64,000 nt of DNA from a virus (lineage: Duplodnaviria > Caudoviricetes), in the IMG/VR virus record IMGVR_UViG_3300021400_000252; one strand, 5' to 3'. Both the position numbers and the translations under genes were made by a program. The notes beneath the pieces are model-generated. The model saw only the letters and a list, made by a program, of their open reading frames with translations, did not search any database and was not told the DNA's origin. Positions 11,542 to 43,183 of this stretch are shown here, piece after piece (the stretch's first letter is position 1; each line of letters begins with the position of its first letter).

Positions 11542-13422
11542 ATGCAATTACAATTAAATAAAGAAGATAAAATACTTGTGATTGTAGAGTCTCCAACAAA
11601 AAAACCTACTATTGCAAAGATTTTAAAAGATGGTGGATATAAAAACGCAATGATTTCTGCTAGTGTCGGACATATTATGAAATTAGCTGACGATAAAAAA
11701 TCTTGGAAAAATACTGGTATTTGGCCAGATCAAGATTTTAAAGCTAATTATAAATTAAACGAAGAAAAAGCAAAAGTCGTTGAAGAATTAAAAGCAAAAG
11801 TAAAAATGGCTGATTATATTTTTATTGCAACCGACCCAGATAGAGAAGGTCATGTTATTGCTTGGTCAATTCTAAAATTTATTAAACCAGATATTAAGAA
11901 ATGTTATAGAATGACTATGCATGAAATCACAGCTAAAGCCGTACTTCGTGCATTAGAAAATCCTATTGAATTTAATGACAATATGGTTGATGCTGGAATT
12001 ACTCGTTCAATCATAGATAAATTATTAGGTTATAGTTTATCTGAATGGGCTAGATTATACATTGGTGCTAAGTCAGTTGGTAGATGTCAATCTGCAGGAT
12101 TAATCATACTAGAAAATAGAGAAAAAGAAATTCAAGAGTTTAAACCAGAATTATTTTATGATTTATATTTAAATTTTGAAAAGAATAAAACTCAATTTAA
12201 AGCTAAGTATTATGGAACTGAAGATAATAAAGTTGAACATTTTAAGACTTATGCTGAAATGGAAAATGTTGTAAAATCTTGTCTTGGAAATAAATTTAAA
12301 ATTAAAAGTATTGAAAAGAAAGAAAAGAAAGAAAACCCAAAACCTCCTTTTGATACTCCATCATTCCAACAAGAAGCATCAAGTAAATTACGTTTAAAAA
12401 CAAAAGATGCACAAAGTTGTGCTCAACAATTATTCCAAGGTATAGAAGTTAATGGTAGTCATGTTGGTTTAGTTACTTATATACGTACAGACTCAACAGA
12501 AATGGCTCCAGAATTCGTTGATGAATTAAAGCCATATATTGAATCAACTTATGGTAAAAACTCATTTAATAAGCCAAGAACTGGAAAGAAAAATGTAAAT
12601 GCTCAAGATGGACATGAATGTTTAAGATGTACTGATCCATCAATGACACCAGAAAAACTTGCAAAATATATTAAAAATGATTTATTATTAAAAGTATATA
12701 AATTAATTTGGCAAAGAACAATTGCTTCAGCATTACCTCCTACAACTATTTCAGAAACAACTTATTTAATTGAAAATAATGGTCAATTATTTACATTAGT
12801 TTCTAATGAAATTGTTGATCCAGGTTATAGAGTAGTTTATTCTTATAAAGATGATGATGAAAATGAAGATGATATTTATGTAAAAGAAACTTTTAAAAAA
12901 GGTGAAATTCTAGAAAAATGTTCTTTAGATGGTCAAGAAAAATCAACTAAACCAAAACCAAGATATACTGAAGCAACATTTAATAAAGAATTACAAAAAG
13001 CTGGTATTGGTCGTCCATCTACTTATGCAACTATTATTGATACTATCTTATCTGAATCTCGTGGATATTGTAAATTAGAAGGAAAAGAAATGGTATTAAC
13101 AGATTTAGGTAGATTAACTGCTACAACTTTAACTAGAGCATTTCCTAACTTAATTAGTTTACAATATACTAATGAACTAGAACATGAATTAGATTTAATA
13201 GCTGAAGGAAAGTTACAAAAACTAGTAGCTTTAAATAATTTTTATAATACATTAACTGAATCTATTGCAAATAATAGTGAAGGAAAAATTAATACAGATG
13301 GAGAAAAGATCTGTCCTGAATGTGGTAGTCCTTTAAAATTAAGACGAAACAGATGGGGTCAATTATTCTACGGTTGTTCTGGATATCCATCTTGCCATTA
13401 TATATTAAAAGACAAAAAGTAA
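11542..13422 (+). CDS. topA: DNA topoisomerase IA
   Basis: TOPRIM VIVESP and ATDPDREG, SVGRCQ, catalytic VTYIRTD, GIGRPSTY, and one C-terminal C4 zinc ribbon. Confidence 0.97.
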   Translation: MQLQLNKEDKILVIVESPTKKPTIAKILKDGGYKNAMISASVGHIMKLADDKKSWKNTGIWPDQDFKANYKLNEEKAKVVEELKAKVKMADYIFIATDPDREGHVIAWSILKFIKPDIKKCYRMTMHEITAKAVLRALENPIEFNDNMVDAGITRSIIDKLLGYSLSEWARLYIGAKSVGRCQSAGLIILENREKEIQEFKPELFYDLYLNFEKNKTQFKAKYYGTEDNKVEHFKTYAEMENVVKSCLGNKFKIKSIEKKEKKENPKPPFDTPSFQQEASSKLRLKTKDAQSCAQQLFQGIEVNGSHVGLVTYIRTDSTEMAPEFVDELKPYIESTYGKNSFNKPRTGKKNVNAQDGHECLRCTDPSMTPEKLAKYIKNDLLLKVYKLIWQRTIASALPPTTISETTYLIENNGQLFTLVSNEIVDPGYRVVYSYKDDDENEDDIYVKETFKKGEILEKCSLDGQEKSTKPKPRYTEATFNKELQKAGIGRPSTYATIIDTILSESRGYCKLEGKEMVLTDLGRLTATTLTRAFPNLISLQYTNELEHELDLIAEGKLQKLVALNNFYNTLTESIANNSEGKINTDGEKICPECGSPLKLRRNRWGQLFYGCSGYPSCHYILKDKK

Positions 13423-13446
13423 AAACGTGACATTTCACGTTTTTTA
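13422..13446 (+). terminator. Intrinsic terminator
   Basis: AAAACGTGA-CATT-TCACGTTTT followed by a T-run. Confidence 0.75.
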
Positions 13447-13468
13447 TTTTACTAAAAAATAATAGTTT

Positions 13469-13477
13469 GCTAAATTA
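13469..13477 (+). promoter_or_regulatory. Putative late promoter GCTAAATTA
   Basis: TTTGCTAAATTAATTGAT, identical to the copy upstream of the tail sheath (43181). Confidence 0.75.
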
Positions 13478-13528
13478 ATTGATATTTTGAAAATTAAAAT
13501 TTCAATTAATATAACATAGGAGTAGAAC

Positions 13529-14863
13529 ATGGAAATTAATACAAAAGTATTGAATAAGTGGTTACAAATTGTTATTAGAGCAGCTAAGAATACAGATGTT
13601 TCTGATCATGTAACTAATGTTAATGAAAGATTCTATAAACTATCTAAATTTGTTATTTCTCTTTTAATGAAAAAGAGCTATAGAGTTTCAGAAATAGATG
13701 AATATTTTAGAGCTTTCGCTAATAACTATACTTATAAATTAGGTGGTGAAGAATTTAATTTAAGTGTAAAACAAGTATTTGTTGCATTTGCAATGTTCTG
13801 TAAACTTAAAGGTTTAGTATGGGATCAATCTAGTGCTCCTTCTGTTTATGAAGTTGATGCATTTAAAGACTCAAACTTTGGTAAATTATTAATTAAACAT
13901 GGTTTATTTGCTGGAGCTGATTCTAATACACAATCTGAAGAACCAACACAAGAACCAGAACAAACTACTGAGCCAACAAATGTAACTCAAGAACCTACAG
14001 CTGATACAGCTGAAGCTGAACCTACACAAGAACCAGCTGCAGAACCAGAACAAACTCAAGCTAGTGAAGTTCAACCTGAAGCACAACCTACAGAAGCTCA
14101 ACCTGCTGAAGGTGAAGCTAAGCCAAAGAGAAAGAGAAGAAAAAGAGTAAAAGATGGAGATCATTACTATGGAAATCAAAGTGATGTTGTAAAACGTTCT
14201 AGAAATAAAGATGTAGATAGAAAGAAACCAGACCGTTCATTCTATCCTCATATGTCTCCATATGTAATCGATTTAATTGGTACACCAGGTAGTCCAATTG
14301 AAATGACTGGTTCAGGTGGATATATTTATATTATAGCTGGTAGTGCTAATAAGACTAGTAATAAAACTCCAAAAGCATATGTTATGCCTCTAAAGAAACA
14401 ATTATTAAATACTAGAACTGGTGAAATTGGTGATATTAATCCTAAGAAATTACAACCAAACACTGATAGATTAAATGATAAAGGTGAATTAAAAGTTCAT
14501 ATTGCAGGTTCATCTACACTACAAAATCAAATGTTATTCTTCAATACTCCTCAAGAAGCTCAACATGTATTAGATCAAGTTTTAGCTAATCCAGAAGGAA
14601 GAATTGATACAAATAATATTGTAGTAAGTGACTTAAAGATTAAAGCTATTAAATTATTCGAAGTCGATCCTAACTGGAGACGAAACTTAGAAGTATTTAC
14701 TCGTAAGTTCTATAAAATTAAAACTGAATTTGGTGAAGCATATATTGCAGCCAAAGATTTATTTGAATCAGTTCAAGAATCTATAACTAATGATGACGGT
14801 GTTGAAACTTGGTCAGATGAATATGGAAAAGCATATGATGAAGCTTTTAGAAGATATTACTAG
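13529..14863 (+). CDS. Hypothetical protein with a Pro/Glu/Gln/Thr linker and a basic patch; first gene of the MoxR operon
   Basis: EPTQEP-type repeats, KPKRKRRKRVK, and C-terminal LFES/VQES sites. Confidence 0.75.
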   Translation: MEINTKVLNKWLQIVIRAAKNTDVSDHVTNVNERFYKLSKFVISLLMKKSYRVSEIDEYFRAFANNYTYKLGGEEFNLSVKQVFVAFAMFCKLKGLVWDQSSAPSVYEVDAFKDSNFGKLLIKHGLFAGADSNTQSEEPTQEPEQTTEPTNVTQEPTADTAEAEPTQEPAAEPEQTQASEVQPEAQPTEAQPAEGEAKPKRKRRKRVKDGDHYYGNQSDVVKRSRNKDVDRKKPDRSFYPHMSPYVIDLIGTPGSPIEMTGSGGYIYIIAGSANKTSNKTPKAYVMPLKKQLLNTRTGEIGDINPKKLQPNTDRLNDKGELKVHIAGSSTLQNQMLFFNTPQEAQHVLDQVLANPEGRIDTNNIVVSDLKIKAIKLFEVDPNWRRNLEVFTRKFYKIKTEFGEAYIAAKDLFESVQESITNDDGVETWSDEYGKAYDEAFRRYY

Positions 14864-14872
14864 GAGTTAGAA

Positions 14873-16597
14873 ATGAAAATTAAGAAAACAAAAATTATTG
14901 AAAATTTAAAACCATTAAGAGAAGCAGATGGTGATGATGACGATCTAGATTTAGATAACCTAGATTTAGATGATATCGATTTCGATGATGCTGATTTAGA
15001 TGGATTAGATGATTTAGATGGTGATGAAGAAAAAATTCAAAAGGTTGCTCCAAAAGAACAACAAGCGCCTCAACCTCAATCTAAACCACAACCACAACCT
15101 AAATCAGAGCCAGCTCCTCAACCTAAACAAGAACAACCAAAGCCAGCTGAAGCTCATGTTGATAATGCAAAAACATTACCTTCAGGTGATGTTGTAGGTA
15201 CAACTAAAAAACCTTCAAAACCATCAAAGGTAAGACAAGTTATTGATCTTCAAAACTTATTAGATCTTAAAGGTGGAAATTTACCTAAGAATGCTGTTTA
15301 TTCTGTTTTAAATCGTTCATTAAGAGATTCAAAAATTGCAGCAATTAAACAAAGAGTTAAGAAACAACCAGACGCAAACTTTGCACGTGATTTCAATATA
15401 TTAGTTGAAGGTCTTCCTGGTGGTGGTAAAACTGCTACTATTAAAGCTTGGGCTGAGGCTAATGGTGTTAACCTAGTTGCAGTAAATGCAAAGGACCCAG
15501 ATCTAGAATTAGCAATTAATGGTGCTGTAATGAGAGATTTAAGTAATGATAGTGATAAGAACTCAATTGTTATGGCTTATTCTAAATTATTAGCTCCACT
15601 TGAAGAACCAAATTCAATCTTATTCTTAGATGAATATAATAGACAAACTGATGACCAAATCAGAGCTTCACTTTTAACATTAATTGGTGAGCACTGTATT
15701 TATGGTCAAGTTGGTGGACAAGTTGATACTGAAAAGAAACAAGGATACCATTTCTTTAAAAATATGTTATTTACAGTAGCAGCTATCAACCCAGCTGTAC
15801 CTCAAGATAAAGGTGCTGCTAAGTTAAATGATGCTGAAATGAGTAGATTCTTACGTAGAGTAGTATTTGACTCATCTCCAAAAGCTGCAGCATCATATTT
15901 TAAATGGTATTTTGATAAAGAGTTAAAAGCAATTACTGATGCAAATCAAGATACTTCTGAAGCAGATCCAGCTTATGCTTGGGTATATGCTACAACATTC
16001 TTACAAAAACATATAGCAATTTATTTAACTACTTCTCCAGATTTTAGATTTGATACTAAAGATGATTTACAAGACTTATATAATGGTGACAAAACAATGT
16101 TTAACCAAAGATTATTAACTCAATTAATTGCATCATTAGTATATCATCCAGAAGCAACAATGGCACAACAAATCTTAGATTATATTGGTAAGATTGCTCC
16201 ATTAAATCTTGTAGATTTACCTGACCAAGCCGAAGATGATTTAAGAGACTGGTCAAATATCTTAGATAAAGATAAAGATATGCTTGAAAAACTTTTAAAA
16301 GATTATAAACAACCTCCAGTAAATATTCCTGGTTATGGTGATATTTCTCAATTAGATCAAGCTATTGATGACGATGACGTTAATCCAGACGAAGTTGAAG
16401 ATGAATTCAATGATGATAATGTTGCTACTGAATTTGATGATTTAGTAAAACAAGCAGAAAATGGTGAAGAAATAGATAATGATTTATTCGCTAATGACAG
16501 TAGTACAGATTCAGCAACTGGTAATGCAGTTAATACACAAGAATTAGATGCAATTACAAATGCAATTAACAATAGTATAGATAATATTAAAATGTAA
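14873..16597 (+). CDS. MoxR-family AAA+ ATPase with acidic low-complexity termini
   Basis: Walker A GLPGGGKT, Walker B ILFLDEYNR, sensor 1 AAINP, and the Arg-finger region AEMSRF. Confidence 0.9.
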   Translation: MKIKKTKIIENLKPLREADGDDDDLDLDNLDLDDIDFDDADLDGLDDLDGDEEKIQKVAPKEQQAPQPQSKPQPQPKSEPAPQPKQEQPKPAEAHVDNAKTLPSGDVVGTTKKPSKPSKVRQVIDLQNLLDLKGGNLPKNAVYSVLNRSLRDSKIAAIKQRVKKQPDANFARDFNILVEGLPGGGKTATIKAWAEANGVNLVAVNAKDPDLELAINGAVMRDLSNDSDKNSIVMAYSKLLAPLEEPNSILFLDEYNRQTDDQIRASLLTLIGEHCIYGQVGGQVDTEKKQGYHFFKNMLFTVAAINPAVPQDKGAAKLNDAEMSRFLRRVVFDSSPKAAASYFKWYFDKELKAITDANQDTSEADPAYAWVYATTFLQKHIAIYLTTSPDFRFDTKDDLQDLYNGDKTMFNQRLLTQLIASLVYHPEATMAQQILDYIGKIAPLNLVDLPDQAEDDLRDWSNILDKDKDMLEKLLKDYKQPPVNIPGYGDISQLDQAIDDDDVNPDEVEDEFNDDNVATEFDDLVKQAENGEEIDNDLFANDSSTDSATGNAVNTQELDAITNAINNSIDNIKM

Positions 16598-16627
16598 TTA
16601 AATTTAATTGCAATATAAGGAGATTAT

Positions 16628-17860
16628 ATGCATAAACTTAATAATCTACGTGAATCTGCAACTGATTATATGACTCAAGAAGAAAAAACTTGGAAAAATC
16701 AGATAATTAAATTATTAATTAATAAAAAACATAGTAAGTTTGCTAAACGTTTACTTTATTATGATTTAAATATCGTTGAAATTCAAGATGATCCAGATTT
16801 TACTGCTGCAATTTCAACAGATGTAACAAAACCAGTCATTTACATAAGTAGAGGATTCTTAACGAATCCTCAAACTTTTGACCAATTAGATGTACTTCTT
16901 AGACATGAATTATCTCATAATCTAATGATGCATCAATTAAGAATGATTAATAAACTTAATGCAAGTGCAAAAAAAGTTAAAGGTACTAATTCTTGGAAAG
17001 ACTTAGCAAATAGTAATTCGTTTCAAGATTTTTTAAATATAATTATGGATGATGAAATTTCTAATTTTAGATATTCACAGATCGATAAAAATACTGTTCG
17101 TTATATGGTTTTAAATGGTAAAACTATTAGCGGATTAGTTACAGAAGACCATAGAGAATCTTGGATGAAATTAACTCTTGAAGAAATGTATGAAAAAAGT
17201 TTACAAGAGTTAGAACAAGTTAGACAAAACGTACTTAATAATATTAAAAATGCAGCTCCAAAAAACATGATAGATAGATCTTATTTTAAAAATTCATCTT
17301 ATGCTAGAATTGATGCTCCAACATCAACATTTGGTACAAAAGATAAATCTGGAGCTCATGGTATTGAACAAATAAAGAAATCAAAATACTATCGTTCATT
17401 AGGTGTAAAATATAGAAGAACACAAATTATTATAAATAGAATTCTTGAGGTATTAAAGGATAAGTCAGATGACCAATTAAAAAGTGCTTTAAGAAAAATT
17501 GGTGAGTCTAAATTAACAGATAAATTATATTTTGGAGAGATTTTAGTCGATGGCAAACCAGAAAAGATTTATATCACTTCTCCAGAACAAAAGTCTATTA
17601 CTGCATCTATTATTAAATATTTATTAGGAAATATCGCCGAAAAACCTGTTGTAGACGTTCAAAGAAAATTCCACACTCAAGAATATAAGAATGCTTATAA
17701 TGAAATTATGAATAACGTTAAAGATATTTATAAGAATCTTTCTTCAAAAGATTTAGAAGAGATTTTAAATCGAATTGCTGCATCAAATGTTATTGCAAAT
17801 AAAACTTCTTATGGAACTCTTTCTAAAGAAGACTATGAGATGAGATATGGAGCTATTTAA
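16628..17860 (+). CDS. HExxH metallopeptidase-like protein (DUF2201 N-terminal type)
   Basis: FTAA...IYI, LRHELSHNLMMH and NIIMDDEIS; lies between MoxR and vWA genes. Confidence 0.75.
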   Translation: MHKLNNLRESATDYMTQEEKTWKNQIIKLLINKKHSKFAKRLLYYDLNIVEIQDDPDFTAAISTDVTKPVIYISRGFLTNPQTFDQLDVLLRHELSHNLMMHQLRMINKLNASAKKVKGTNSWKDLANSNSFQDFLNIIMDDEISNFRYSQIDKNTVRYMVLNGKTISGLVTEDHRESWMKLTLEEMYEKSLQELEQVRQNVLNNIKNAAPKNMIDRSYFKNSSYARIDAPTSTFGTKDKSGAHGIEQIKKSKYYRSLGVKYRRTQIIINRILEVLKDKSDDQLKSALRKIGESKLTDKLYFGEILVDGKPEKIYITSPEQKSITASIIKYLLGNIAEKPVVDVQRKFHTQEYKNAYNEIMNNVKDIYKNLSSKDLEEILNRIAASNVIANKTSYGTLSKEDYEMRYGAI

Positions 17861-19974
17861 TGAAAAAAGATGATTTATTAAAGAAAGTAGATAATGAAGC
17901 AACAGTCGGAACTTTTGATGCATTACAAGGATATGCAGATGCATTAGTTCAAATATTACAAAAAAAGCAACCTAAACCTGAAGGTCCACAAGGTGGTGGA
18001 GGTGGAATGCCTCCAATGCCAGATGACCTACCACCAATGGAGATAGATCCAGACTTACCAGTATTAAGTCCAGATAATCAAAGTGGAGCTGGAATGTCGA
18101 TGGATTTTGATGATCCAGAAGACTTAATGAAAAAACAAAAACAAATCGACCTTGGTGATACTCCATCTAAAGAAGAAAATGATGATGACGACGATGATGA
18201 CAGCAATAATGGTGGAAATAGTGGTAGCAGTCAATCAAAGAATAAAAAGAATAAAAAAGATGATCAATCAGATGAAAATAATGGCGGATCAGATGATGGT
18301 GGTGACTTTGAAGATGAAGATGATTTAGATAATCTTGACAATTCAAATAATAGAAAGCCTCCAAAGAATAGAAACGGAAACGATCTAGACGATTTAGACG
18401 ATCTAGATGACTTTGATGATTCAGATTTAGATAACCTAGATGACTCAGATTTAGACGATTTAGAGGACCAAGATAATAATTCTAATGGTAAAGGTAAAAA
18501 TCAAAATAAGGACGATTTGGATGATTTAGACGACCTAGATAATACTGACATTGATGATTTGGATTTAGATGATTTAGGTGATGAAGATAATGATAATGAA
18601 TTTGGTGGATTAGATGATGGTGAAGATTCTGAAGATAATTCAGATGATAACCAAAATCAAAAAGGAAAGAATGGTGATTCTAAAGACTCAGATGATTCAG
18701 AAAATCAAAGTGGAGATTCTTCTTCAAGTAGTCAAAGTAGTTCAGATAGTAGTTCAGACTCTGATCAAGATTCTAAAGAACATCAGGCAGGATCTGATAG
18801 TGACGAAAATAATTTTGAAGTAGGTAACGACAGCGATAATAAGTCTAGTCAAACAAAATCAGATAAAAATAAATCAGATAAAGATAATAAATCTTCAGAT
18901 TCAAAAGCTAATAAAGATCCACAAGATCAAAATGGTGAAAAGTCAAACGATAAAGAAAAAGAAAATACACCAAAAGACAATTCAGCAGATGATGATACTC
19001 TAGAATTACCTAGTGAAAAAAATGAAGCTAAAGCTAAAGATAGATTGAGAAGAATAAACAGACTTCAAAAGCATATTTCAAAAGTTTTAGAAAATAATAA
19101 ATTTGATAAGAAACTAGATAAATCAACTAAAGATAGATTAAAGAAAGATTTAGAAGATTTAAAAGATGCTGAAAATCATGTATATGAGGATTCAGATAAA
19201 GTTGAAGATATTCTTCTTCAAGGAATTAATGATCTAAGTCAAATATTACAAATCTCTATAAGTAAAGATTTAGAGAAGAGAGGTTCTGTAGTAACAGCTT
19301 TAAATAATGATCCATTTGCTAATATGGAAATCGATCAAGAAGAAAAAGAAATTATTAAGAACTCTGGTGCTCAAAAGAAGTCTAATTCAGCTGATGCATA
19401 TCAAGCAGTTTATACTGCAGCTGAATTAAAACGTGATATCGAAAAACTTATCGGAATGCAAGTAGAAAAGTATAAGCTTTCTATAAAATCATATAGAATT
19501 ATGAATAGACATGCTGAAGATAATAATATGATTAGAAAAGGTCACCAAGATAAACGTAGACTTGATGATAAGAAACCATATATGAGAGTTTATATTGACC
19601 AATCTGGTTCTTGGCATAAAGAAGACTTTGATAAAGCACGAGCTTTATGTTCTGGATTAAAAGCTTATCAAGATGATGGACTTCTAGATTTAGAGTATAA
19701 ATATTTCGATAGTTCAGTTTACGATACTCCAAAAAATGAAGGTAGTGGTGGAACTAGCGCTTGGCCAGAAATATACACACAAATTAGAAATAGTACATTT
19801 ACTAATGTTATGATTGTAACAGATAGTGATTTACAAGATTATGAAAAAACAAGTTATCCAACTCTTGAACTAGAAGGTGCTGTCTTCTGGGTATGGAAAG
19901 GTGGAGACAGTTCAGACAAGTTATGTAAGTACTTACATGGTGCACTTTGGAATAAACAATATTCATTAGATTAA
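17860..19974 (+). CDS. vWA-domain protein with a long Asp/Asn/Ser-rich disordered region
   Basis: MIDAS DQSGS, GGTS and VTDSD in the C-terminal domain; TAATG coupling to the upstream gene. Confidence 0.85.
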   Translation: MKKDDLLKKVDNEATVGTFDALQGYADALVQILQKKQPKPEGPQGGGGGMPPMPDDLPPMEIDPDLPVLSPDNQSGAGMSMDFDDPEDLMKKQKQIDLGDTPSKEENDDDDDDDSNNGGNSGSSQSKNKKNKKDDQSDENNGGSDDGGDFEDEDDLDNLDNSNNRKPPKNRNGNDLDDLDDLDDFDDSDLDNLDDSDLDDLEDQDNNSNGKGKNQNKDDLDDLDDLDNTDIDDLDLDDLGDEDNDNEFGGLDDGEDSEDNSDDNQNQKGKNGDSKDSDDSENQSGDSSSSSQSSSDSSSDSDQDSKEHQAGSDSDENNFEVGNDSDNKSSQTKSDKNKSDKDNKSSDSKANKDPQDQNGEKSNDKEKENTPKDNSADDDTLELPSEKNEAKAKDRLRRINRLQKHISKVLENNKFDKKLDKSTKDRLKKDLEDLKDAENHVYEDSDKVEDILLQGINDLSQILQISISKDLEKRGSVVTALNNDPFANMEIDQEEKEIIKNSGAQKKSNSADAYQAVYTAAELKRDIEKLIGMQVEKYKLSIKSYRIMNRHAEDNNMIRKGHQDKRRLDDKKPYMRVYIDQSGSWHKEDFDKARALCSGLKAYQDDGLLDLEYKYFDSSVYDTPKNEGSGGTSAWPEIYTQIRNSTFTNVMIVTDSDLQDYEKTSYPTLELEGAVFWVWKGGDSSDKLCKYLHGALWNKQYSLD

Positions 19975-19995
19975 TAAAAAAATTAAATAATTATT

Positions 19996-20004
19996 GCTAA
20001 ATTA
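19996..20004 (+). promoter_or_regulatory. Putative late promoter GCTAAATTA
   Basis: TTGCTAAATTATCTGTA, intergenic. Confidence 0.7.
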
Positions 20005-20059
20005 TCTGTATAAGCGTATTAACTTATTCCTTTCATAAATACGCTTATACAGATTTTTT
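20004..20059 (+). terminator. 17-bp perfect hairpin plus T-run; terminator or regulatory RNA structure
   Basis: ATCTGTATAAGCGTATT (20004-20020) pairs with AATACGCTTATACAGAT (20038-20054). Confidence 0.7.
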
Positions 20060-20088
20060 AATCTTAAAAATTGATTAGGAGAATTATA

Positions 20089-21975
20089 ATGGCAGAACGT
20101 AAAAAGAAAAAATATTCTAATTGTACATATACTACTGGAAATTTATCTTTAAATATGAACCAATTTAATAAAGATGCTGTACTTCCAGATGATGATTCAA
20201 ATAAAGAAGTAAATGTAGATACAACAACACCTACAACTACTAGTGAAACAACTACTACTCCATCAACTGGTGATGGTGGAAACGGTGGAATGGCTGAAGG
20301 ATTAAATGAAGCAACTGCATATAGTAATGCAGTACATGTTCAAGGTGACTTTGAAATTCCAGATGAAGTAAAGATTCTTGATCAGAAGCAAATTGAAGAT
20401 GCTTTAATTGGATTGGAAATCGAAGAAGAATTTAAAGTTGGTTATGTTAGACCATTATATTTATATAAAGAATTAGTTGATTTATTTAAAATTGTAAAAA
20501 CAACAGAATTAGTTGGATATACTGGAATAGATTATATTGAAGCAAGAGCTGACTTAGATAATAATAGAGATGCTAGATTAGCGGTAGCTAAAAAAGTTGC
20601 TCAATTAGATAATGACAAAGGTACACATCTAGATTATCAACCAGGTGCTAATAGAGAAGGTGACTTCTCAGCTGATTATTATTCAGTTGGTAAATTAGTT
20701 CAAAGAGATGATAAAGTTAATAAAACTACTGATTTTAGAACAATTTTATTCTATCCAACAATTGGAAGTAAACCAAGAGTTTGTTATTGGTTTAAATTAA
20801 CTATTAAAGGACAAGAATGGCCAAACTTTAAACAAATTGGTAGAGATCAATTAGTTCAATTAGTTCTTTCTACTGCTGAAAAACTAGATAAAAAATCTAA
20901 TCGTTGGAATATGGAAAAATTAAAACGTAAAGTTTTAGATGAAATTGCTAAAGACGAACAAACTATTTCTGCTGTTGAGTTTGATCAAGAAGATAATTTA
21001 GAAACTCGTTCTAAATTAGATAAAGGTGGAGTTATTGCTAAACCTAGAGTAAGAGCGTTATATTCAAATCAAATTTATTATTTATCAACTAAGAATGTTA
21101 CATATGGTGCTCCTGTTGTTAAGTATATTAAAGAAGATCTAGATCAAGATTTAGAAGAAAAACGTGAAACTAAGAGATATTATATTAGACCTCAAAATAT
21201 TTTCTGTGCAAATAAAAAAGACGTATTAAAAGCTTTAATAGATGTAGCTGATGCTGGTGAGAACTGTACTGTGTATACTTTAAAGAACTTAGATGACCAT
21301 GATGATGTACAAAAATTAAGTAATGATGATATTATTTATACGTACGATGAGCATGCACTAAGAGATAAAAATGGTGTATTAGTAATGGATTATGACTTAT
21401 TCATTAAACATGAAGAAGAACGTCCTAAATTAGGAAAATCACCAGATCAAATTACAAAGTCAGAATTCGATCAAAATTATGACGATAGAATGACTCAAAA
21501 CACATTCGTTGAATCAAAGGAAGATAATATGGAAGATTTAGTTGGAAAGAAAGTTACAATAATTTCAATTGATCCAAACGATCCAGCTGCAGATGATTAT
21601 GCTGGTAAAGAAGGAACTATTACTGAAGTAGGTAAAGATCCTTGGGGCGATATTTATTATCGTGGAACATGGGGTGGCATTGCTCTATATCCAAATATAG
21701 ATAAGTTAAAGATTACAGAAGGATTTGAAGTAAAATATGAAGATCCATTTAATTTATCTTTTGATACTTATGAAGGTGATCGTAAATTATTTGAAGATGC
21801 AAATGAAGAACAAATCTGTTGTATTTGTGGTGAACCATATAAAGGTTATGGAAACAATGCAGAACCATATAAACATGGATATTGCTGTGATGAATGTAAT
21901 TTAAAATTTGTTATTCCAGCAAGAATGCAAGGATTAAATAGTTATTACGATAAAAAAGATGAAGATGAAGAATAA
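20089..21975 (+). CDS. Multidomain protein with an SH3-like (DUF4314-like) domain and a C-terminal zinc finger
   Basis: VGKKVTIISIDPNDP...GKEGTITEV...GTWGGIAL and CCICG...GNNAEP...CCDECN. Domains are separated by LNE, LEE, FVE, ITE and LFE sites. Confidence 0.7.
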   Translation: MAERKKKKYSNCTYTTGNLSLNMNQFNKDAVLPDDDSNKEVNVDTTTPTTTSETTTTPSTGDGGNGGMAEGLNEATAYSNAVHVQGDFEIPDEVKILDQKQIEDALIGLEIEEEFKVGYVRPLYLYKELVDLFKIVKTTELVGYTGIDYIEARADLDNNRDARLAVAKKVAQLDNDKGTHLDYQPGANREGDFSADYYSVGKLVQRDDKVNKTTDFRTILFYPTIGSKPRVCYWFKLTIKGQEWPNFKQIGRDQLVQLVLSTAEKLDKKSNRWNMEKLKRKVLDEIAKDEQTISAVEFDQEDNLETRSKLDKGGVIAKPRVRALYSNQIYYLSTKNVTYGAPVVKYIKEDLDQDLEEKRETKRYYIRPQNIFCANKKDVLKALIDVADAGENCTVYTLKNLDDHDDVQKLSNDDIIYTYDEHALRDKNGVLVMDYDLFIKHEEERPKLGKSPDQITKSEFDQNYDDRMTQNTFVESKEDNMEDLVGKKVTIISIDPNDPAADDYAGKEGTITEVGKDPWGDIYYRGTWGGIALYPNIDKLKITEGFEVKYEDPFNLSFDTYEGDRKLFEDANEEQICCICGEPYKGYGNNAEPYKHGYCCDECNLKFVIPARMQGLNSYYDKKDEDEE

Positions 21976-21999: not shown

Positions 22000-23358
22000 A
22001 TGGATATTTTCAGAAATTTATTTGAAGAGCTCGCTCCAGAAGATAATATCGAGAAAATTAAAAAAGAAATATTAAAATTAAAAACTCCAACTGCAGAAAA
22101 AACTTCTAACTATGTTTTATATGATGAAGATTCTATTAAATATTATAAAGAAAAAGGTGAGCCAGGAACTGTAGACCACGAAACTGAGCGCTATGTATTT
22201 AGACTTGGTGGTGGTTTAAATGGCTGTGGTACTTGGTCTAATTATTTTAAAGATTTAAGTGTAATATTTAAAGAATTAGAAGAAAATACTGGTTGAGCTC
22301 CAGTTGCTACTGATTTTTCTTTAGATACTATTGATGATGTATTTGATGTTGAAATAACATTATTTAATCCAAAAGACCATGATGAATTAAATGATAAATT
22401 AAATGAAGATTTAATTTTTATTGACAAAAATAATGCTAAATCAAAATTATATGGATTAAGAAAACAAATTGAAACTACTCAAAATGATAGTGTAAAAGAA
22501 TCATTATTAAATTTATTTAATCTATATCTATATCAAATTAAATCTTTAATGTTTGATTATAAAGTAGATTTTAGTGAAGATGAATGGCAAGAAAATCGTA
22601 AATTCATGATGGATAACATGGATAACTTAGAAGGTAAATCTGATCAATTAGAAGAAGATATTGAAAAACATGAAGAGTTAAATCCAAAATTATTTAATGA
22701 AGATGAAAAATTAAAAGATGAAGTTTTAGATAAAATTAATTTAATTGTTGAATATTTTTTATCTGATCTAGAAGAAGATGGAATTAAAATCGATGTTGAA
22801 GATATTATCTTAGTTGGTTCTAACGTAAGTTATAATTATACTAAAGACTCAGATTTAGATATTCATATTATTGCTAATACAGATGATTTAGATTGTCCAG
22901 ACAATTTATATCCATTATTATATGGTGCTTATAAATCTTTATTTAATAGAAAGATGGATATTAGTTTCTATGGAATTCCAGTTGAAGTTTATGTTGAAAC
23001 AGATGATACTCCATTAAGAAGTAACGGTATTTATTCTGTAAAAGATAATGATTGGATTGTTCACCCGGTTCAAGCTAATATTCCTGATATAGATTTTGAT
23101 CAAGTTGAAGAATTAGTTAAACCTTATGAAGACAGATATAAAGAAATTCTTGAAAATCCATCTGTTGAAGAAATTGAACAACTAATTACTGATATCTATG
23201 AAGAACGTAAAAAAGGTATGAGTGATGAAAATGGTGAATATTCTTTAGAAAATTTATGTTTTAAAGAATTTAGAAACAGAGGTTATTTAGATAAATTAAA
23301 AGATTTAAAAAATGAAGTATTATCTAAAGAACTATCATTAGAAAATTTAGAAAACTAA
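22000..23358 (+). CDS. Pol-beta superfamily nucleotidyltransferase with N-terminal extension; one TGA-Trp at 22294
   Basis: Track ORFs 22000 and 22549 are in frame with no other stop. Motifs ILVGSNVSYNYTKDSDLDIH (hGS...DxD) and PVEVYVE. Confidence 0.8.
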
Positions 23359-23407: not shown

Positions 23408-24043
23408 ATGATTTTAAATGAAAAGAAACAAAAACTTCCAGAGATTTTCCTATCTACATATATTTCAGATGCTTGGGATAGAATTGCTACATTAAAAGCT
23501 GATATTGATGGAATTAAAGCTGAATATTCTGATACAAAAGATGTCGAAGAGGTATTGAATGATTTAATTGATACTTATTTAATTCTAGTAGGTACTTTTG
23601 AAAATAAATTAAAATCTATTGGTTCAAATGTTGAAATTGTTAGAAAAGAACCTGAAGTAAAGAAGGTAAATGAAAGCGTTTTACAAAGAACACAAGTTCA
23701 AAGACCACAACCTGTTCAACCTCAAGTTCAACAAAGACCTGTAAATAGAAATCCTCAACCACAGGTTCAAAGAGTTCAACCTCAGCCTCAACAAACTAGA
23801 GCTCCTCAATTAGATGATGATTTATGGAGTGATGCAGTATTTGCTCCACAAAATCAACAAAGAATGAATGAGAGTTATAATCAACAAGCTGTAACTGCTG
23901 GTGGATTAGATAGTTATTATGATGCTCCAGTTCAATCTAATTCAGATACTTATGATGTTCCAGACTTCCCAGATTCAGATTTCGAGATGTCTCAAGAAGA
24001 ATTAATGGAATTAGAAAAGTTTAAAGCACAATACAGAAGATAA
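23408..24043 (+). CDS. Hypothetical protein with a Gln/Pro-rich region
   Basis: AGGAG RBS; LNE, VNES and MNES sites. Confidence 0.7.
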   Translation: MILNEKKQKLPEIFLSTYISDAWDRIATLKADIDGIKAEYSDTKDVEEVLNDLIDTYLILVGTFENKLKSIGSNVEIVRKEPEVKKVNESVLQRTQVQRPQPVQPQVQQRPVNRNPQPQVQRVQPQPQQTRAPQLDDDLWSDAVFAPQNQQRMNESYNQQAVTAGGLDSYYDAPVQSNSDTYDVPDFPDSDFEMSQEELMELEKFKAQYRR

Positions 24044-24095: not shown

Positions 24096-24214
24096 TCTGA
24101 TCGATTAATATTTTATTACGTAAAAATGCGTTTTTTATCGTTTATATATGAATATTCAAATAAACATTAAAACGCTTCCTGAGCGTAAATTTTTGATGTC
24201 TAGTGGAGAATTAT

Positions 24215-25747
24215 ATGGCACTTATTCAGTTATATTCTTGGATAAATAATGAAGAAGATATTTTAAATTTAGATTTTACAACTACACATTTTACTTCTGA
24301 TTTAGATGCTGTCGATTATTTTCAAAAAAGAGACAATTTAAATATTCCTATCGGAAGTGCTTATGCATTTACATTAGATTTTAATATTAATCCATTAATT
24401 TTCTCTTCTGATTTATTTGATTGGTCAGCTAAAAATATTATTAATAAAATATTAAATAGCTATGGAATTAATTTAAATAATGATGAATTTCAAAATGCTA
24501 ATTGTGATATATTAAATGCACCTCAATTACAAAACGTTCAAATTGAACAATTAATTGATATGTATAAGTTAATTGATGCTTTCGATGTAAATGATAGTAA
24601 GAGAAATAAAGCTTGGTTCGAATATTTATCAATTTATTTAAATAAATTAGGAATTAATGCTATTCAATATTCTGTTGGTACTTCAGATTTTTATATTTTA
24701 TTAACAAAAAATCTTGAAATTATTGAATGTAAGAAAATTGAAATTCATAAAGATGGCGAAAGAGATTTATTTAAACAATTTTTCACCGAAGATACTAGAA
24801 TGCAATTAGTTTCAACTTCAAGAAATGCTGGTCCATATAAAAATCAAAAATACGGAAAAAATAGATTTGAAAGAAAGAAATTATCAAAAATTGCTAGAAC
24901 AGTAAAACAATATAATAAAATTGATATGAATCAATTATTTAAAAATGATGTTTTAGAAGTAGAAATTCCTGTAATTGGAGAATCAGATGAATATTTAGTT
25001 ACAGTTAGAATGGATGGAGTTATTGCTGAACTAGCAAAAATTTTAAAAAATAATAAATTCAAATTAGAATATAAAATTGTTGTTCAAGCATTAACTAAAA
25101 TTTTTAATAGTGCTGATTTACAAATAAATTGTACATGTCCAGATCATAAATACCATTTTTCACATTGGAATATTATAAGAGGTGTTTCTACTTTAGATTC
25201 AGCACATGACCCAGGACAAGGTAAAGGAATTGCAAATCCAAATGATGATCAAGGTCGTGGTTGTAAACACTCTTTATTAGTTTTAAATAATGGAGATTGA
25301 ATTTTAAAAGTTGCTTCAGTTATTAATAACTATATTCATTATATGTCAGAAAAGTCTCAAAAATTATTCTTAAAATTAATATTCCCTAAATTATATGGAA
25401 TTACTAGTGATGAAATGGTTGAACAAGATTTATTAGATAAAGAAACATTACAAGATTGTTTAGATTCAAACGAAAGCTTTATTGATGCTATTAATGAGTA
25501 TGGTAAAAATAGAGGTAAATTCCAAAAAGGTTCTAATATTAACCCTGTTTACGCTGATAAGCTTGAAGCTGAACAAAAAGAAGAAAATACTAAACAACAA
25601 GTTGATCCAAACAAAAAGAATTTACAAAAAGCTGTTAAAGAGACAGAAAGAGCTAATAAACTTGCTCAAAAAGAATCTGAAAAAGCTGATAAAGAAGCTT
25701 CAAAACCTATTGAACCTCCTAAAGAAGATGAAGAACAACCAGTATAG
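24215..25747 (+). CDS. SWIM zinc-finger protein with a possible degenerate ADP-ribosyltransferase-like N-domain; one TGA-Trp at 25298
   Basis: CTCPD...GCKH (SWIM). The frame continues through TGA into track ORF 25343. Confidence 0.75.
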
Positions 25748-25765: not shown

Positions 25766-25799
25766 TATAATATATAATATATCCAGATTGGAGAATATT

Positions 25800-27914
25800 A
25801 TGAATTTTGATCAAGAAAAATTTAATAAACTCTCAACTGAAGAACAAAAAGTCGTTTTACAAATTTTAAAAGAATATTCTAAAACTGGAAAATCTGAACT
25901 TTTAGATTCATTACAATCTATGGAATGGGACGAATTTCCAGTAGATATTCATACATTCTTACATGACAAACGATATTTAGGAAATGCATTATATGATGCT
26001 GAAGGTAAGTTTACAGTATTCCCATACTGAGAAAAATGTTTAGAAGATATATTTCCAACTAATACTTCAACAAAATATAATACTATAGTATTTACAGGAG
26101 CTATCGGTTTAGGTAAATCAACTATAGCAGTTATTTGTTTATTATATTTATTATATAGATTACTTTGTTTAAGAGATCCATATCAATATTATGGAATGCA
26201 AAGTATTGATAAATTAAGTATTTCAATGATGAATATTACATTAGAAAATGCTAGAGGTGTTGCATTAGATAAAATGAATTCAATGCTTTTAGCTAGTGAA
26301 TGGTTTATGAGTCATGGTGAAATGCATGGTACAACTAATATGAGATATGTTACTGATAAACATATTGAAATTATTTGTGCTTCAAGTAATAATCAGATCA
26401 TAGGTCGTGCTTTGTTTGCTAACTTTACAGATGAAGTTAACTTCTCTCTTGTTCAAGACCCAGTTAAGTCTAAGAAGAGAATGATGAAAATTATTACTCA
26501 AGTAGATGCTCGTATGAAATCACGTTTCATGCGTGGTACCTACTTACCTACATTAAATATTATCGCATCTTCAAAAGATAGTGAACAATCTTTCCTAGAA
26601 GAATTTATTCAAAATAAACAAAAGAATGAAAGTAAAAATACTTTAATTGTAGATGAACCTCAATGGGTAGTTGACCCAAGAAAAGATTCACCTCAAAAAT
26701 TCTGGGTAGCTATTGGAGATAAAGTTCTTGCTAACGAATTATTACCATTAGATGCAACTCCAGAATTAGTTGATGAATATAGAAATAAAAATTATACAAT
26801 GTGACAAGTTCCAATTGGATACTTAGATACATTCCAATTAAACCTTGATGAAGCAATTTGTTCTATAATTGGTATTGCAACAGCAGCATCTTTAAAATAT
26901 ATTTCAGGTGAAAGATTAGTTAAAACAAAAACTACTGATTATGAAAATCCATTCCTGAATGATATACTTGAAATTGGAGATGGAGAAGATGATTTACATC
27001 AATATTCAGAATACTTTGATTTAAGTAGAGTTAGTGATAAAGACAAAGAAAAACCATTATTTATTCACTTAGACTTATCTGAGTCTGGAGACATGACTGG
27101 TATTGCAGGCGTATGAATAACTGGTAGAGATGAATCATTTGATAAATCTAAAATGATTGAAAATGATTTTAGTCAATTATCAAAATTAATTTTACAAGAA
27201 TCTAGTGTAGAATCTCAGATGTTAATTTATAAATTAGCTTTCTCTGTTTCAATTAAAAATCCTAGAGGCGCACATATTAGTTCAATAAAGCATAGAATAT
27301 TTATAAATTGGTTAAAAGATAATGGATTTGATATTAAAATGATTACATCAGATACTCACCAATCTGCTACTCTTTTACAAGAATTAAAAGCTGATGGATT
27401 TGAAACAGAAGTATTATCAGTAGATAGAACAACATCACTAGAAAATAAAAAGAAAGTTTGTTTACCTTATCACTATTTTAAAACAGCAATTTATGAACGC
27501 CGTTTCATAATGTATGACAAAGCTAAACTATTAACTGAAGAGTTATTAGGATTGGAACGTGAAGCTGATGGACACATCAACCACCCTGAAAATGGTAAAT
27601 ATGGTTCTAAGGACCAAGCCGATGCAGTCTGTGGTGCAGTATGAACAGCTAGTAAAAATGGTGAAAAATATTCATTTGATTTTGGTGATTCAATTGAAAC
27701 AACTGTTCAAATTTCAAAACCAAGTAATACAAGTCAAAATGAGATTGAAAAACATGATTTTGGAAAAAATCTATTAAATGTAATGTCTAAAGAAAAATAT
27801 ATTGAAGTTGATGAATATGGTAATCCAAAATATTATGGAGACCTAGATGATACTGCAATAGATGATGATGCTATAAATTCAATAGCAATTTCTAATGGAA
27901 TAATTTGTATATAA
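25800..27914 (+). CDS. terL: Terminase large subunit (704 aa); four TGA-Trp codons at 26028, 26802, 27114 and 27642
   Basis: Walker A TGAIGLGKS lies in a gap of the track. Also Walker B FTDEVN, coupling motif IIASS, nuclease HLDLS..GD and SKDQADAV. Directly upstream of the portal. Confidence 0.93.
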
Positions 27915-27930
27915 TAATTAGGAGAATAAA

Positions 27931-29994
27931 ATGCCAGAAAATGATAACAAAACTAAAAAAATTAAAAAACAAGCATCTCAATTAGTAGGAACACTAATTC
28001 AAGCGACTCCTAATAATAACGATAATACTCGATTAGATGTAGATTTAAATAAAACGTTAGAAGACATTTTAATTTTAGGTGGATTAGAGGATAGAGTAAA
28101 TTTCTCAGAACTTGAAAAGTTTACACAAATTTCAAATTCAAGAGACTATATGTATAGTCAATTAGACACAATGTTCCAAGATGCATCAGTTTCGGCTATT
28201 GCAAGAATTTTAACTGAAAATGTTTGTGAAGTTGGAGATAATGGTCATATTGTTTGAGCTGAGTCTGATGATCCAAAAATTAGTAAATTCGTAAATTATG
28301 TATTAAATACTATGAATGTAGATAAAAATATTTTTGGATGGGCATTTAATCTTGTTAAATACGGTGATATCTATTTAAAAAATTTAAGAAATTCAGACTT
28401 TACAAATACAATTTTTAATTCACAAAGTATTCAAAATATGTATAGTGCTAAATCTCATTTAAACGAAACTATTCAATTAGATTTAAAGAATGCTAATGAT
28501 GAATTCTGTTGGAGATTAAAATTAGTTCCAGATCCTGCTACTATGTTTGAATTAAATCAAAATGATATTACTTTTGGATATGTTGAAACTCCAAATGATA
28601 TTACTCAATTAGCTAATCAAGATGCATATGCAGCTAATACTGGTTTAAATTCTAATGCATTAAATGGTGGTGGATCATTTAATTATAAAGTTAAATCAAA
28701 TGATATTATACTTCATGATGCTGAAGATTATATTCATATTTATTTATCAGATGGTCAATCAAGATTCCCAGAGACTATCGATTTAATAATGGAACCTGAC
28801 ATTAAAGATAAGAATGCTAAGAATCGTTCAAATTTAAAATCAACAACTTATGCTTTTGATGTTATTAGAGGAAAATCATTATTCTATGATGTTTATAAGA
28901 TTTGGAGAGAAAAAACTCTTATTGAATCCGCATTATTACTTGCAAGATTAACTCGTTCATCAGTATTTAGAATTGTTTCTATTGAAACAGCTAATATGGA
29001 TAGAACTAAAGCTAATCAATTACTACACCAAGTAAAAGATATGTTTGAACAAAAACGTGCTTTCTTAAGTGGTAAAAATGCTTCAGATTATAATAGCCCA
29101 GGTCCAATCGAAAACTGGATTTATAATAATACTAAGAATGGTAAAGGTGCTATCACAGTTGATACTGTAGGTGGAGATTATGATCCAAAGAATTTAACTG
29201 ACTTAGATAAATGGAACGATAGATTCTACGGTGCATTTGGTATTCCTAAACAATATTTCGGATTAACCGAAGATGGTGCTGGATTTAATGGTGGTACTGC
29301 ATTAACTATTACTTCAACAATTTTCCAAAAGAAAGTTTCTCAAGTTCAAAATGCTTTAATTCAAGGAATTAATACTGCAGTAGATTTATATTGTATTAAA
29401 AAAGGTTTAAAATCTTACGTACATAGATACACTATTAAGATGAGACCTCCAGTTTCTCAAGAAGAACTTAATTATAGAGAAAAATTAACAAATCGTTTAA
29501 ATGCTGTATCAACTGCTAATGCTTTATTCCAAGATGTTGAAACAAAGAGTAGTAGATTAATTATCTTAAAGAATTTATATAAGATGGTTGATTATGGTGA
29601 AGATGAAATTCTTCAAGTACTAGATGAAGAAATTAAATTAGCAAAAGCTGCTGAAGCTGAAGCTAAGAAACAAAAAGAAGAGGAAGCTAAACAAGCTGCT
29701 TTAGATGCTGCTAATGGTGAAGCTGCTAATGCCGAGCCAGCAAATGTTCCTGGTGGTACTGGTGAGACAGGTGGAGCTAATGAAGCATCAGCTCCTGAAG
29801 GTGAAACAGCTAGTGAAGGTGATGATTTAAATCTAGACTTAAATCTTACTGATTTACCAACAGCTGAATCTTTCAATAATACTAACCCAGATGCAGTAAC
29901 ATTAAATGAGGATGTTGACTTTCTAGATGAATCAGAAGATCTTCCAACTCCAGAAGAATTAGATGATAAAGTAGATTTTACTAAAAATAAATAA
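27931..29994 (+). CDS. Portal protein (T4 gp20-like); one TGA-Trp at 28255
   Basis: LVKYGDIYL, LLARLTRS..RI..I, TVGGD and FYGAFGIPKQY; located between terL and the protease. Confidence 0.9.
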
Positions 29995-31115: not shown

Positions 31116-31143
31116 TTTTTAAAATAGTAACTAAGAATTATTT

Positions 31144-31152: not shown

Positions 31153-31195
31153 TTTGTAATCAAATTGATTAATGATATGTAATGGAGGTAAGTTC

Positions 31196-33175
31196 ATGAA
31201 TAACACTACGAATTTATCAACAGATAAAATCCGTGAAGCATTACATTTTCAAGAATTAACTCCTGAAGAAAAACAATCAAGAGGAATTCTTGGTAGACTT
31301 TATGGTCCTTGTGCTTCATTCATCGCACCAACAAGAAATGATCGTTTCTATGGTGATGAGTTATGGACTAATGTATTTGAAAAAAATGAAATAGTAAAAG
31401 AAATGTTTGATAATGGTGGTATTCCAATGGAACTAGACCACCCATTAGGAGATAGAGAAGAAACTACTTCAATTAACATTGCAGCTATTCTTCCAGAAAG
31501 ACCTAAAAAAGATAAAGATGGACATTTAATTACTTATGTTGATATCCTAGATACTCCAAGTGGTAAAATTGTTTATACTTTAGCTAAGTATGGTTTTAAA
31601 TGAGGTATTAGCTCAAGAGGTTCTGGTGAATTAATTTCTGATTATGACGGACATGAGTCTGTTGATCCAACTTCTTATGATTTTCAAACTTTTGATTTAG
31701 TATTACTTCCAGCAGTTAAAGATGCACGTTTAACATTCGTTGAATCTTATGATGCAAAACAAAAAACCGCTATGAAGAAAATGAAGAGAGAATTAAAAGA
31801 AGCTTTAAGTACAGCTTCAGATGGAGATCGAAAAATTATGGAAAATGCTTTAGATAATTTAAAGATAAACTTAGATGATGAAAATCTTAGTCCAGAAAAT
31901 GTTGTAACTGAAGCTATCTCAGATAAAATGTTTGATTTAAATAATGCTCCAAAAACAACACCAGATGGAATTGAAATTGAATATGTAAATATTGATGATT
32001 TCGATAGCTGGTTAAATGAAGGCTTAGATGATTTAGACGAAGCTAAAAAGGACGAAGATCAACCAGAAGATAAAGATAAAGATAAAGAAGAAGAAAAAGA
32101 TTCAGATAAAGATAAAAAAGAAGATAAAAAAGATAAAAAAGAGGACAAGTCAGAAAAGAAGAAAGATGACAAGTCTGATGACGAATCTGAAGAATTTGAA
32201 CCTAAGAATGAATTTACTGTAAAAGAAATTACAGATGCATTCAAAGGTCTTGATAAAGATGCAGTAGTAAAAGTACTACCAGTTGAAATCGATAATAAAG
32301 AAATGAATATTAATCTTTATTTTGATAAAACTGATGAAGACAACCTTGTTATAGGTGGTACCATCGCTCCTGAAGAGAACGATGAAAACATAGATAATCC
32401 TGAAACTGAAGAAACTATTGATGTATTCGGAAACGAAGACGTTGCAGCTAGTGATACTGGAGCAGAGGAATTAGTAGACGATTCATTTATAGAGGACTTC
32501 AAGAAAACTGTTCGTGAAAATAAAGCTTTAGAACAAAAAGTTAAGACTTTAGAAAACGAAAAGACAGTTAGTGATGCTAAGGTTAATGAATTAGATAAGG
32601 AACTTAACCAATATAAAGAAGCTTTCAATAGAACAAGTCAGGTTGCGTCTCAATATAAGAAATCAAAATTAGAAATTCAAAACTTAAACAATCAGTTAGC
32701 TGAAAAAGATAACCAAATTAAAGCTTTAAGTGAAAAATTATCTAATAACAAATTAACTGAAAGTTTAGATTCTACTAAATTAGAAGTTACTAAGTTAAAA
32801 CAACAATTAGTTGAACAAGCTACAAACTATAAGCAAAAATATGCTGAAAGAACTGATGTAGCTAAGAAGTACAAATCAATGTATTTAGGTGTAATGCAAA
32901 AATATGTTGAATCAAAAGCTAATATGTTAAACGTTAGAGCTTCAGAGATCACAAGTAGACTAGACAAAAACTATACTACAGATGATGTAGATCAAGTATG
33001 TGATCAAATCTTAAATGAAGGTATGACAATGTCAAATATGAGTCATTTACCTTTAACAAATGCAAATACTAAAGTTAAATTCAGTGAAGGCCTACAAAGA
33101 CAACAAGCTCCTAAAGAGGATGCTGGATATGAGATCGCTGATTGGGCTCTAGAACTTGCAAATATGGAATATTAA
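31196..33175 (+). CDS. Prohead protease (T4 gp21-like) fused to a scaffold-like acidic and coiled-coil region; one TGA-Trp at 31601
   Basis: RNDRFY, ELDHP, ILDTPSG, then past the TGA: GISSRGSG and FDLVLLPA. In frame with track ORF 31772. Confidence 0.92.
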
Positions 33176-35649: not shown

Positions 35650-36372
35650 ATGAATGTAACCTTAGCTGATGTTATTAGAGAGATTAAACGTAAAGTTTGG
35701 GCAGGTGACAACCTAGAGCATGATCTAGAAGATGTTGATCTTAATGAGATTGTAAATGAATCGATTCGAGAAATAAGACGATATTTCGATGAAACTGCTA
35801 AAGTGACGATTCCATTCCAACGATGTATTAATCTAAATGAACAAAAATTTAAACCAAGTTCTATAATAAAAATTTATAAAGTAAATGGAAATAGTGTTAA
35901 TACAGATGATATAAATGTTAATACCGACCCACTATATGCTTATCAATTTTTAATATGGAGTAATGGTGGTACTATGTACAATGTACAAGATTACACTTAT
36001 AATTATGGTGCTTGGAGTACTATGAACCAAATTCGAAATACTTTAACAACTGAATTAGATTTCGAAGAGGATAAACAAAATAATTTAGTTTATATATTTA
36101 CGAGTTTGAATCCAAAAGCAATCACACTTGAATATATTCCAAGAATTGAAAAAGTTGAAGATATTCAAACAGATAGATGAATAGATATATTAATTCAATT
36201 AGCTGTAGCTCATACAAAAGTTGAAGTTGGTAGAATTAGAACAAGATATACTACTTCAAATGAACTATGGGGTGATGATGCTGAAAAAATGTTAACTGAA
36301 GGTCAAGAAGAACTAAAAGCTTTAAGAGAAAAACTTGAAGAAGAAGACTCAGTTATACCACCATTAAATTAG
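35650..36372 (+). CDS. Neck / head-tail adaptor (T4 gp13-like); one TGA-Trp at 36178
   Basis: DRW...AHTKVEVGRIRTRY...EGQEELKALREKL matches the gp13 C-terminus; TAG stop at 36370. Confidence 0.85.
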
Positions 36373-43155: not shown

Positions 43156-43183
43156 AAGAATTAAATTAATTTATTAATCATTT

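Follow-up and report, generated by a model that had tools for sequence, protein, structure and literature searches.

Pairs of a MoxR-type AAA+ ATPase and a protein bearing the von Willebrand factor type A domain (vWA) are widespread and poorly understood, and a phage role for them has only been predicted. We describe a module of this kind from a 64,000-nucleotide (nt) stretch of the virus record IMGVR_UViG_3300021400_000252 (hereafter the window, meaning the whole stretch analysed), in which a MoxR ATPase is encoded together with a stand-alone HExxH metallopeptidase, a vWA protein and a protein of 444 amino acids (aa). The closest described counterpart is found in the group 2.2 (T4-like) jumbo phages, which encode a MoxR ATPase along with a fused metallopeptidase-vWA protein, and for the two a part in the assembly of virions, including peptidolytic processing, has been proposed (Iyer et al., 2021, Viruses 13:63, PMC7824862). 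Another viral example is the MoxR protein p618 of the Acidianus two-tailed virus (ATV), a major virion component, whose vWA partner is p892 (Scheele et al., 2011; reviewed in PMC4124505). An earlier note on this DNA, made from the sequence alone, was aware of no characterised equivalent, and this needs to be amended, as a related pair had already been described and connected with virion assembly (PMC7824862), and p618/p892 of ATV are also on record (PMC4124505). Our analysis identifies the module as a split phage version of the MoxR AAA+/metallopeptidase-vWA chaperone pair, joined by a conserved 444-aa partner, and it is very probable that it serves late in infection, in morphogenesis.

Four genes in a fixed order

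The four genes are co-oriented on the + strand, between an intrinsic terminator (13421-13444, + strand; a 10-pair stem followed by a T-run) that lies 3' of a topoisomerase gene and marks the upstream end of the operon, and a hairpin (20004-20054, or to 20061 with its T-run) with a perfect 17-bp stem (-24.1 kcal/mol, z -8.7). Gene 1 (13529-14863) encodes the 444-aa protein, gene 2 (14873-16597) the MoxR-family AAA+ ATPase, gene 3 (16628-17860) the stand-alone HExxH metallopeptidase, and gene 4 (17860-19974) a protein composed of an acidic disordered region and a C-terminal vWA domain. Each of the four open reading frames (ORFs) is preceded by an AGGAG-type ribosome-binding site, the stop codon of the peptidase gene and the start codon of the vWA gene share one base (17860), and no further terminator-like site was found on the + strand inside the operon. 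The operon drawn by the earlier note between a terminator and a hairpin is present as described, in its ORFs and in both of its boundaries.

Related loci were surveyed in metagenomes (63 loci) and in IMG/VR (5 loci, recovered by a scan with an alignment, a scan of the same database with a single protein giving no match). Among the loci with enough flanking sequence to enter the synteny count, the order of the 444-aa gene, the ATPase, the peptidase and the vWA gene is invariant in approximately 30 complete loci, on one strand and with tight spacing, the vWA gene being two genes downstream of the ATPase gene in all the complete loci; such is the result of the synteny survey for which the earlier note had called. 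The flanks are also common to the loci, with a topoisomerase gene usually present upstream of the module. In many lineages the vWA gene is directly followed by a fifth gene, of the family of the window gene at 23408-24043, and thus the hairpin boundary after the vWA gene appears to be specific to this phage.

The peptidase and the vWA protein are encoded by separate genes, in different frames and with variable spacing, in about 37 of 38 loci, the only fusion being that of locus L003. The latter, one polypeptide of 523 aa, has BLASTP matches to the peptidase and to the vWA protein of the window (E 6e-15 and 4e-10), the window peptidase being homologous to its N-terminal half, and it scores 36.8 bits with the DUF2201_N model (cut-off 23.2) and, weakly, 16.4 bits with DUF2201 (cut-off 26.4). 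As this protein matches both window proteins and also passes DUF2201_N, the two window genes probably represent a split DUF2201-type protein, in agreement with the previous claim that a normally fused peptidase and vWA domain are separated here. Within L003 (5754-9124) the fused gene is located between genes for an IS605 OrfB-type transposase and for a BspA-type leucine-rich-repeat protein, and the ATPase of this locus is fragmented. Irregular loci of a different kind are L052, L063 and L067, from human gut contigs of 36-37% guanine plus cytosine (G+C), which possess the 444-aa gene and the ATPase gene, a broken peptidase gene and no detectable vWA gene; their incomplete module could be due to assembly error or to decay.

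As the window proteins themselves miss the Pfam cut-offs, the identities of the genes rest on homologues and on predicted folds. The ATPase scores 20.8 bits with the Pfam model AAA_3 (PF07726; cut-off 27), its orthologue from locus L005 passes with 28.8 bits, and its homologues number 282, most of them, among the 120 matches listed, carrying PF07726. Walker A (GxxGxGK[ST], G180-T187) and Walker B (hhhhDE followed by N-R; D253, E254, N256, R257) are invariant in the alignment of these proteins (A1), as are the sensor and arginine residues, and to judge by these residues the AAA+ catalytic set of the enzyme is intact. The best match of the A1 profile in the PDB is 2r44_A (E 2.4e-5 over approximately 230 residues), an entry titled 'uncharacterized protein', which we take to be a MoxR-family ATPase of Cytophaga hutchinsonii. 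In one subclade (L005:9416-9790; also L016, L026, L010 and L037) the ATPase is enlarged by some 75 residues that follow its N-terminal leader, and a D-x-S-x-S within this insertion aligns with that strand of the vWA profile which bears the metal ion-dependent adhesion site (MIDAS; hhalign probability 60%, E 8.5e-5).

As to the peptidase, which has 315 homologues of approximately 385 aa, its HExxH motif is found at residues 93-97 (nt 16904-16918), and H93, E94, H97 and the acidic residues D141/E143 downstream are all invariant. In the AlphaFold2 (AF2) model (predicted local distance difference test score, pLDDT, 83), the N-terminal domain aligns with BlaR1, the minigluzincins and Ste24/HtpX (M48) at Z values of 4.7-6.0 that are modest yet agree among these peptidases (VIA-align), and Foldseek with the whole model gave no significant match; the protein has an intact HExxH core in a zincin-like fold. 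Neither the peptidase nor the vWA protein of the window matched DUF2201 or VWA models of Pfam. The N-terminal portion of the vWA protein (window 17860-19150) is a long acidic disordered region, some 370 residues with 32% D+E (measured over residues 61-430) and with much Ser and Asn; close to residue 60 the homologues have in common with it a short motif resembling E-I-D-P-D-L. The MIDAS motif, D-x-S-x-S, is encoded at nt 19597-19611, and in an alignment of 29 C-terminal domains from the related loci (A4) the D, S, S and D of the site are invariant and the T nearly so. Foldseek with the AF2 model of this protein places integrin I and von Willebrand factor A domains on top (probability 1.0, best E 6e-4), the NorQD complex appearing at rank 33. 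A word-based sequence search with the vWA protein returned near-identical proteins only, and the homologues were taken from the loci instead. By homologues, profiles and folds, then, the identities originally given to these genes (MoxR, HExxH, and vWA with an intact MIDAS) are borne out.

The 444-aa protein, always the first gene of the module, is composed of two conserved domains separated by a low-complexity linker. Twenty-two distant homologues of it were recovered, and no match was found in Pfam, PHROGs, the PDB sequences (with a single protein or with a profile) or the Atlas. Approximately 30 residues before its C-terminus, an L-x-E, invariant across 20 distant homologues, is followed by a variable acidic tail (window 14750-14863); this L-x-E could be a C-terminal processing site or simply belong to a conserved helix.

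Expression of the module can be judged from an 18-nt late-type promoter motif (13466-13483, + strand, with its core at 13468-13477), positioned 45 nt before the first start codon. Exactly two copies of the full motif are present in the window, at 13466 and at 43181, the latter preceding a probable tail sheath gene (so called from Atlas sheath families as leads and from its position before the tube gene), with the tail tube gene (PHROG E 2e-11) two genes beyond. Of the 10-nt core there are 10 exact copies, every one of them intergenic and on the + strand, preceding late or structural genes that include the protease-scaffold gene and the probable sheath gene. The same motif recurs in 26 of 27 related loci, at a distance of 45-75 nt upstream of the gene that opens the module, despite divergence of the module proteins of these loci to 25-40% identity, which indicates a clade-wide promoter element common to structural genes; that it belongs to the late class we infer from this structural-gene company. 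The identity with the tail sheath promoter, as put forward earlier, is exact at 43181, the sheath call itself being probable, and the co-regulation with structural genes that was claimed from it extends to the clade as a whole. Overall, the vWA domain has an intact MIDAS, and the gene order and the promoter are kept throughout a large clade of giant T4-like phages, uncultured, of the gut and rumen. A further copy of the late core leads directly into the 17-bp terminator hairpin (19995-20061, + strand) with which the operon of this phage ends downstream. A transcript begun at this promoter would be without the 5' arm of the hairpin, and thus the arrangement could block read-through from the module and still permit new initiation.

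Leaders of the ATPase and the peptidase

Glutamate-specific processing of N-terminal leaders is documented for T4, where Alt is cut at ITE-6 and multiple sites are found within propeptides (PMC5694885). In the window, the leader of the ATPase comprises residues 1-17 (nt 14873-14923) and has two (L/I)-x-E sites, and the leader of the peptidase comprises residues 1-9 (nt 16628-16654). Both had been read by the earlier note as short leaders ending in L-R-E, and both readings hold, with the specification that the L-R-E of the ATPase (residues 15-17) is the second of two tandem sites, the one kept among homologues being mainly the first (residues 8-10). Conservation among homologues, on which the earlier note had made its reading depend, is high: ATPase leaders are present in 39 of 42 loci and, among independently called proteins, in 114 of 116 distinct N-termini, and peptidase leaders in 41 of 47 loci (5 more having shorter leaders) and in 84 of 85 independently called proteins. 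The ATPase N-termini start with M-K-I and have an (L/I)-x-E within 8-18 residues, followed in many cases by another such site at a distance of a few residues; an acidic low-complexity stretch follows, and a variable linker sets the leader apart from the fold. The peptidase leaders, of 6-19 residues, vary in sequence by lineage and end, in almost all lineages, with (L/I)-x-E and then S/A; only the fused L003 protein is without one. If the pattern is made strict, so that the Glu has to be followed by a small residue, the control families, which are upstream and non-late, reach fractions of 0-0.22, the topoisomerase excepted, where the motif is the catalytic strand of the enzyme.

This leader format is common to non-homologous neighbouring proteins of the same genome. 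The products of the window genes 20071-21975, 23408-24043 and 24203-25747, along with their homologues from L001-L066, have short leaders ending with hydrophobic-x-E, and in the 20071 family the leader is followed by a poly-basic run. The N-terminus of a scaffold-like ORF at 31772 was also considered as a leader and rejected, being internal to the protease-scaffold fusion if TGA is read as Trp.

A candidate enzyme for the cutting of the leaders is the product of 31172-33175 (+ strand), a probable head-maturation protease fused to a scaffold, which is one ORF if the TGA at 31601 is read as Trp. It matches PHROG 207 (head maturation protease, E 5.5e-9), its gene is preceded by the late motif at 31143, and putative His and Ser motifs were recognised in it by eye only. 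A specificity for Glu may be assumed from the rule of the T4/phiKZ family and from candidate sites in the N-terminal region of the capsid protein. The reading of TGA as Trp would concern further late genes: in-frame TGA splits several late ORFs under table 11, and reading it as Trp (code 4) fuses each of them (22000-23358, 24203-25747, 25788-27914, 27931-29994 for the portal, 31172-33175 for the protease and scaffold, and 35650-36372), the fused versions having their match, in related loci, in ORFs that are undivided. In-frame TGA is absent from the four genes of the module, which are unchanged under this code. The window, of approximately 28% G+C, comes from a distant T4-like myovirus, a giant uncultured phage of the gut or rumen, and encodes a portal of the T4 type (Pfam E 5e-29), a major capsid protein of the gp23 type (E 3e-23), and tail tube, baseplate wedge and tail fibre proteins; 5' of the module are a gp46-like nuclease gene, the topoisomerase IA gene and a deformylase-like gene.

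The place of action

How such a module might work can be outlined from its parts. A client would be bound by the vWA protein via its metal site and remodelled by the MoxR ring, and the peptidase, which in the fused forms is anchored to the vWA domain and which here is linked to it by translational coupling, would cut it; the leaders would recruit the ATPase and the peptidase to the prohead core and would there be trimmed by the protease-scaffold protein. The prohead core is the most likely destination of these two proteins as their basic and variable leaders end with (L/I)-x-E and a small residue, in the T4 format, and on balance the sequence evidence favours, by no wide measure, recruitment of the module to the prohead and trimming there. 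That the module, once recruited and trimmed, would also act in head assembly or maturation we propose only tentatively, and equally tentative is the more general formulation, of an AAA+/zinc-protease/vWA machine brought into the prohead core via cleavable leaders and either active in maturation or delivered to the next host. Several observations weigh against this proposal. The 444-aa protein has no N-terminal leader in any of 28 loci, and the leader of the vWA protein, present in some lineages (9 of 37 loci overall), is non-canonical in the window. The candidate protease has no match in Pfam or among PDB sequences, so both its type and its specificity are deduced. Neither the ATPase nor the peptidase nor the fused protein of L003 had a relative among GenBank phages in searches with DNA and protein, and no cultured relative was found. 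The MoxR pair of phage 0305phi8-36 has been classed among non-structural genes (PMC2147016). With the loose pattern, moreover, two non-late control families keep an N-terminal [LI]-x-E (0.61 and 0.67), and the motif alone is therefore not diagnostic; what argues for a targeting leader is that three features occur together, namely a leader that varies, a terminal site that is fixed and a linker that follows.

An alternative is a cytoplasmic assembly chaperone that is never packaged, and that would assist, in the cytoplasm or at the membrane, in the folding, metallation or trimming of virion proteins, a possibility that has to be taken seriously even if we would not expect it to be true. The leaders would then be ordinary helices, or A-rich starts favoured in translation, or pro-peptides removed by the peptidase of the module itself, and indeed the AF2 model has residues 2-10 of the peptidase in a helix, and the loose [LI]-x-E is kept in some non-late families, as noted. 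MoxR proteins are generally cytoplasmic chaperones, and such a role matches the published proposal for the fused pair (PMC7824862). It is less easily reconciled with leaders whose length and sequence vary, yet whose (L/I)-x-E with a small residue is kept in more than 90% of members, nor does it account for the variable linker that separates the ATPase leader from the fold, or for the sharing of the format by non-homologous neighbours. The evidence from the leaders applies equally to an effector that is packaged and then ejected, like T4 Alt or the internal proteins, to remodel or degrade host proteins (defence factors, for example) before phage expression; T4 does eject large proteins bearing leaders (PMC5694885), and several of the downstream late proteins also have conserved leaders. 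We regard this as unlikely, as the ATPase and the vWA protein are strongly acidic (isoelectric points of approximately 4.3-4.4), unlike DNA-associated internal proteins, a property more in keeping with a role like that of core or scaffold proteins than with ejection alongside the DNA, as a hexameric AAA+ would need to be reassembled after ejection, and as models of defence and counter-defence gave no match and there is no pointer to a host target; injection into the host, as suggested originally, is speculation. Finally, a MoxR-like AAA+ and a vWA protein are likewise found together in chelatases and in conflict systems. A chelatase-like pair (CobS/CobT, BchI/BchD), or a vWA-MoxR system of conflict or superinfection exclusion unrelated to the virion, is nevertheless highly improbable here, considering that the HExxH peptidase is integral to the module, that the promoter is of the late structural type and the position fixed at the head of the late block, and that no match to chelatase or defence families was found in Pfam, NCBIfam or PADLOC; PADLOC and NCBIfam gave low-complexity noise only, and the defence and chelatase readings were set aside.

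Relation to described systems

The clade described here offers a fixed four-gene operon and a split architecture in which the peptidase is separated from its adaptor, along with a prediction of the site of action, namely that the leaders would be cut after Glu by the prohead protease. If this is true, then capsid targeting of the T4 style is not confined to small internal proteins but includes a remodelling machine that depends on energy, for which no bacterial virus would have given an earlier case, and the leaders would provide a sequence rule for head cargo in uncultured giant phages of the gut and rumen, defining a block of leader-tagged head cargo in the giant gut phages.

In terms of gene content, the jumbo-phage pair is closely similar, with a MoxR ATPase adjoining an HExxH peptidase and a vWA domain in large T4-like phages, and it is experimentally uncharacterised, as is the module described here. 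It differs in that here the peptidase and the vWA protein are split and translationally coupled, the 444-aa gene comes first, and leaders of the cleavage type are present. ATV also possesses a viral MoxR with a vWA partner, p618 being a chaperone in virion morphogenesis; however, the pair of this archaeal, spindle-shaped virus has no peptidase and no protease-type leader, and its role is in extracellular tail growth; the comparison was made at the level of the family. The bacterial DUF2201 proteins (PF13203 and PF09967), encoded beside MoxR-type ATPases, show the same combination of HExxH, a vWA-like domain and an AAA+ partner, but these are cellular and in one polypeptide, and the window proteins fall below both Pfam models. 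As to the leaders, the likeness is to IPI-III, Alt, gp67 and gp68 of T4, a set of non-homologous cargo with late expression and with short (L/I)-x-E leaders, often with several sites, that are cut after Glu. The cargo of T4, however, is made up of internal proteins that are small and basic, or is an ADP-ribosyltransferase, whereas here it would be an AAA+/protease machine, for which cleavage and targeting are predicted. In conclusion, the kind of module is itself known, if uncharacterised, and what is new here is the split of the peptidase from the vWA protein, together with a fourth gene, an operon of the late type whose gene order is fixed, and the leaders.

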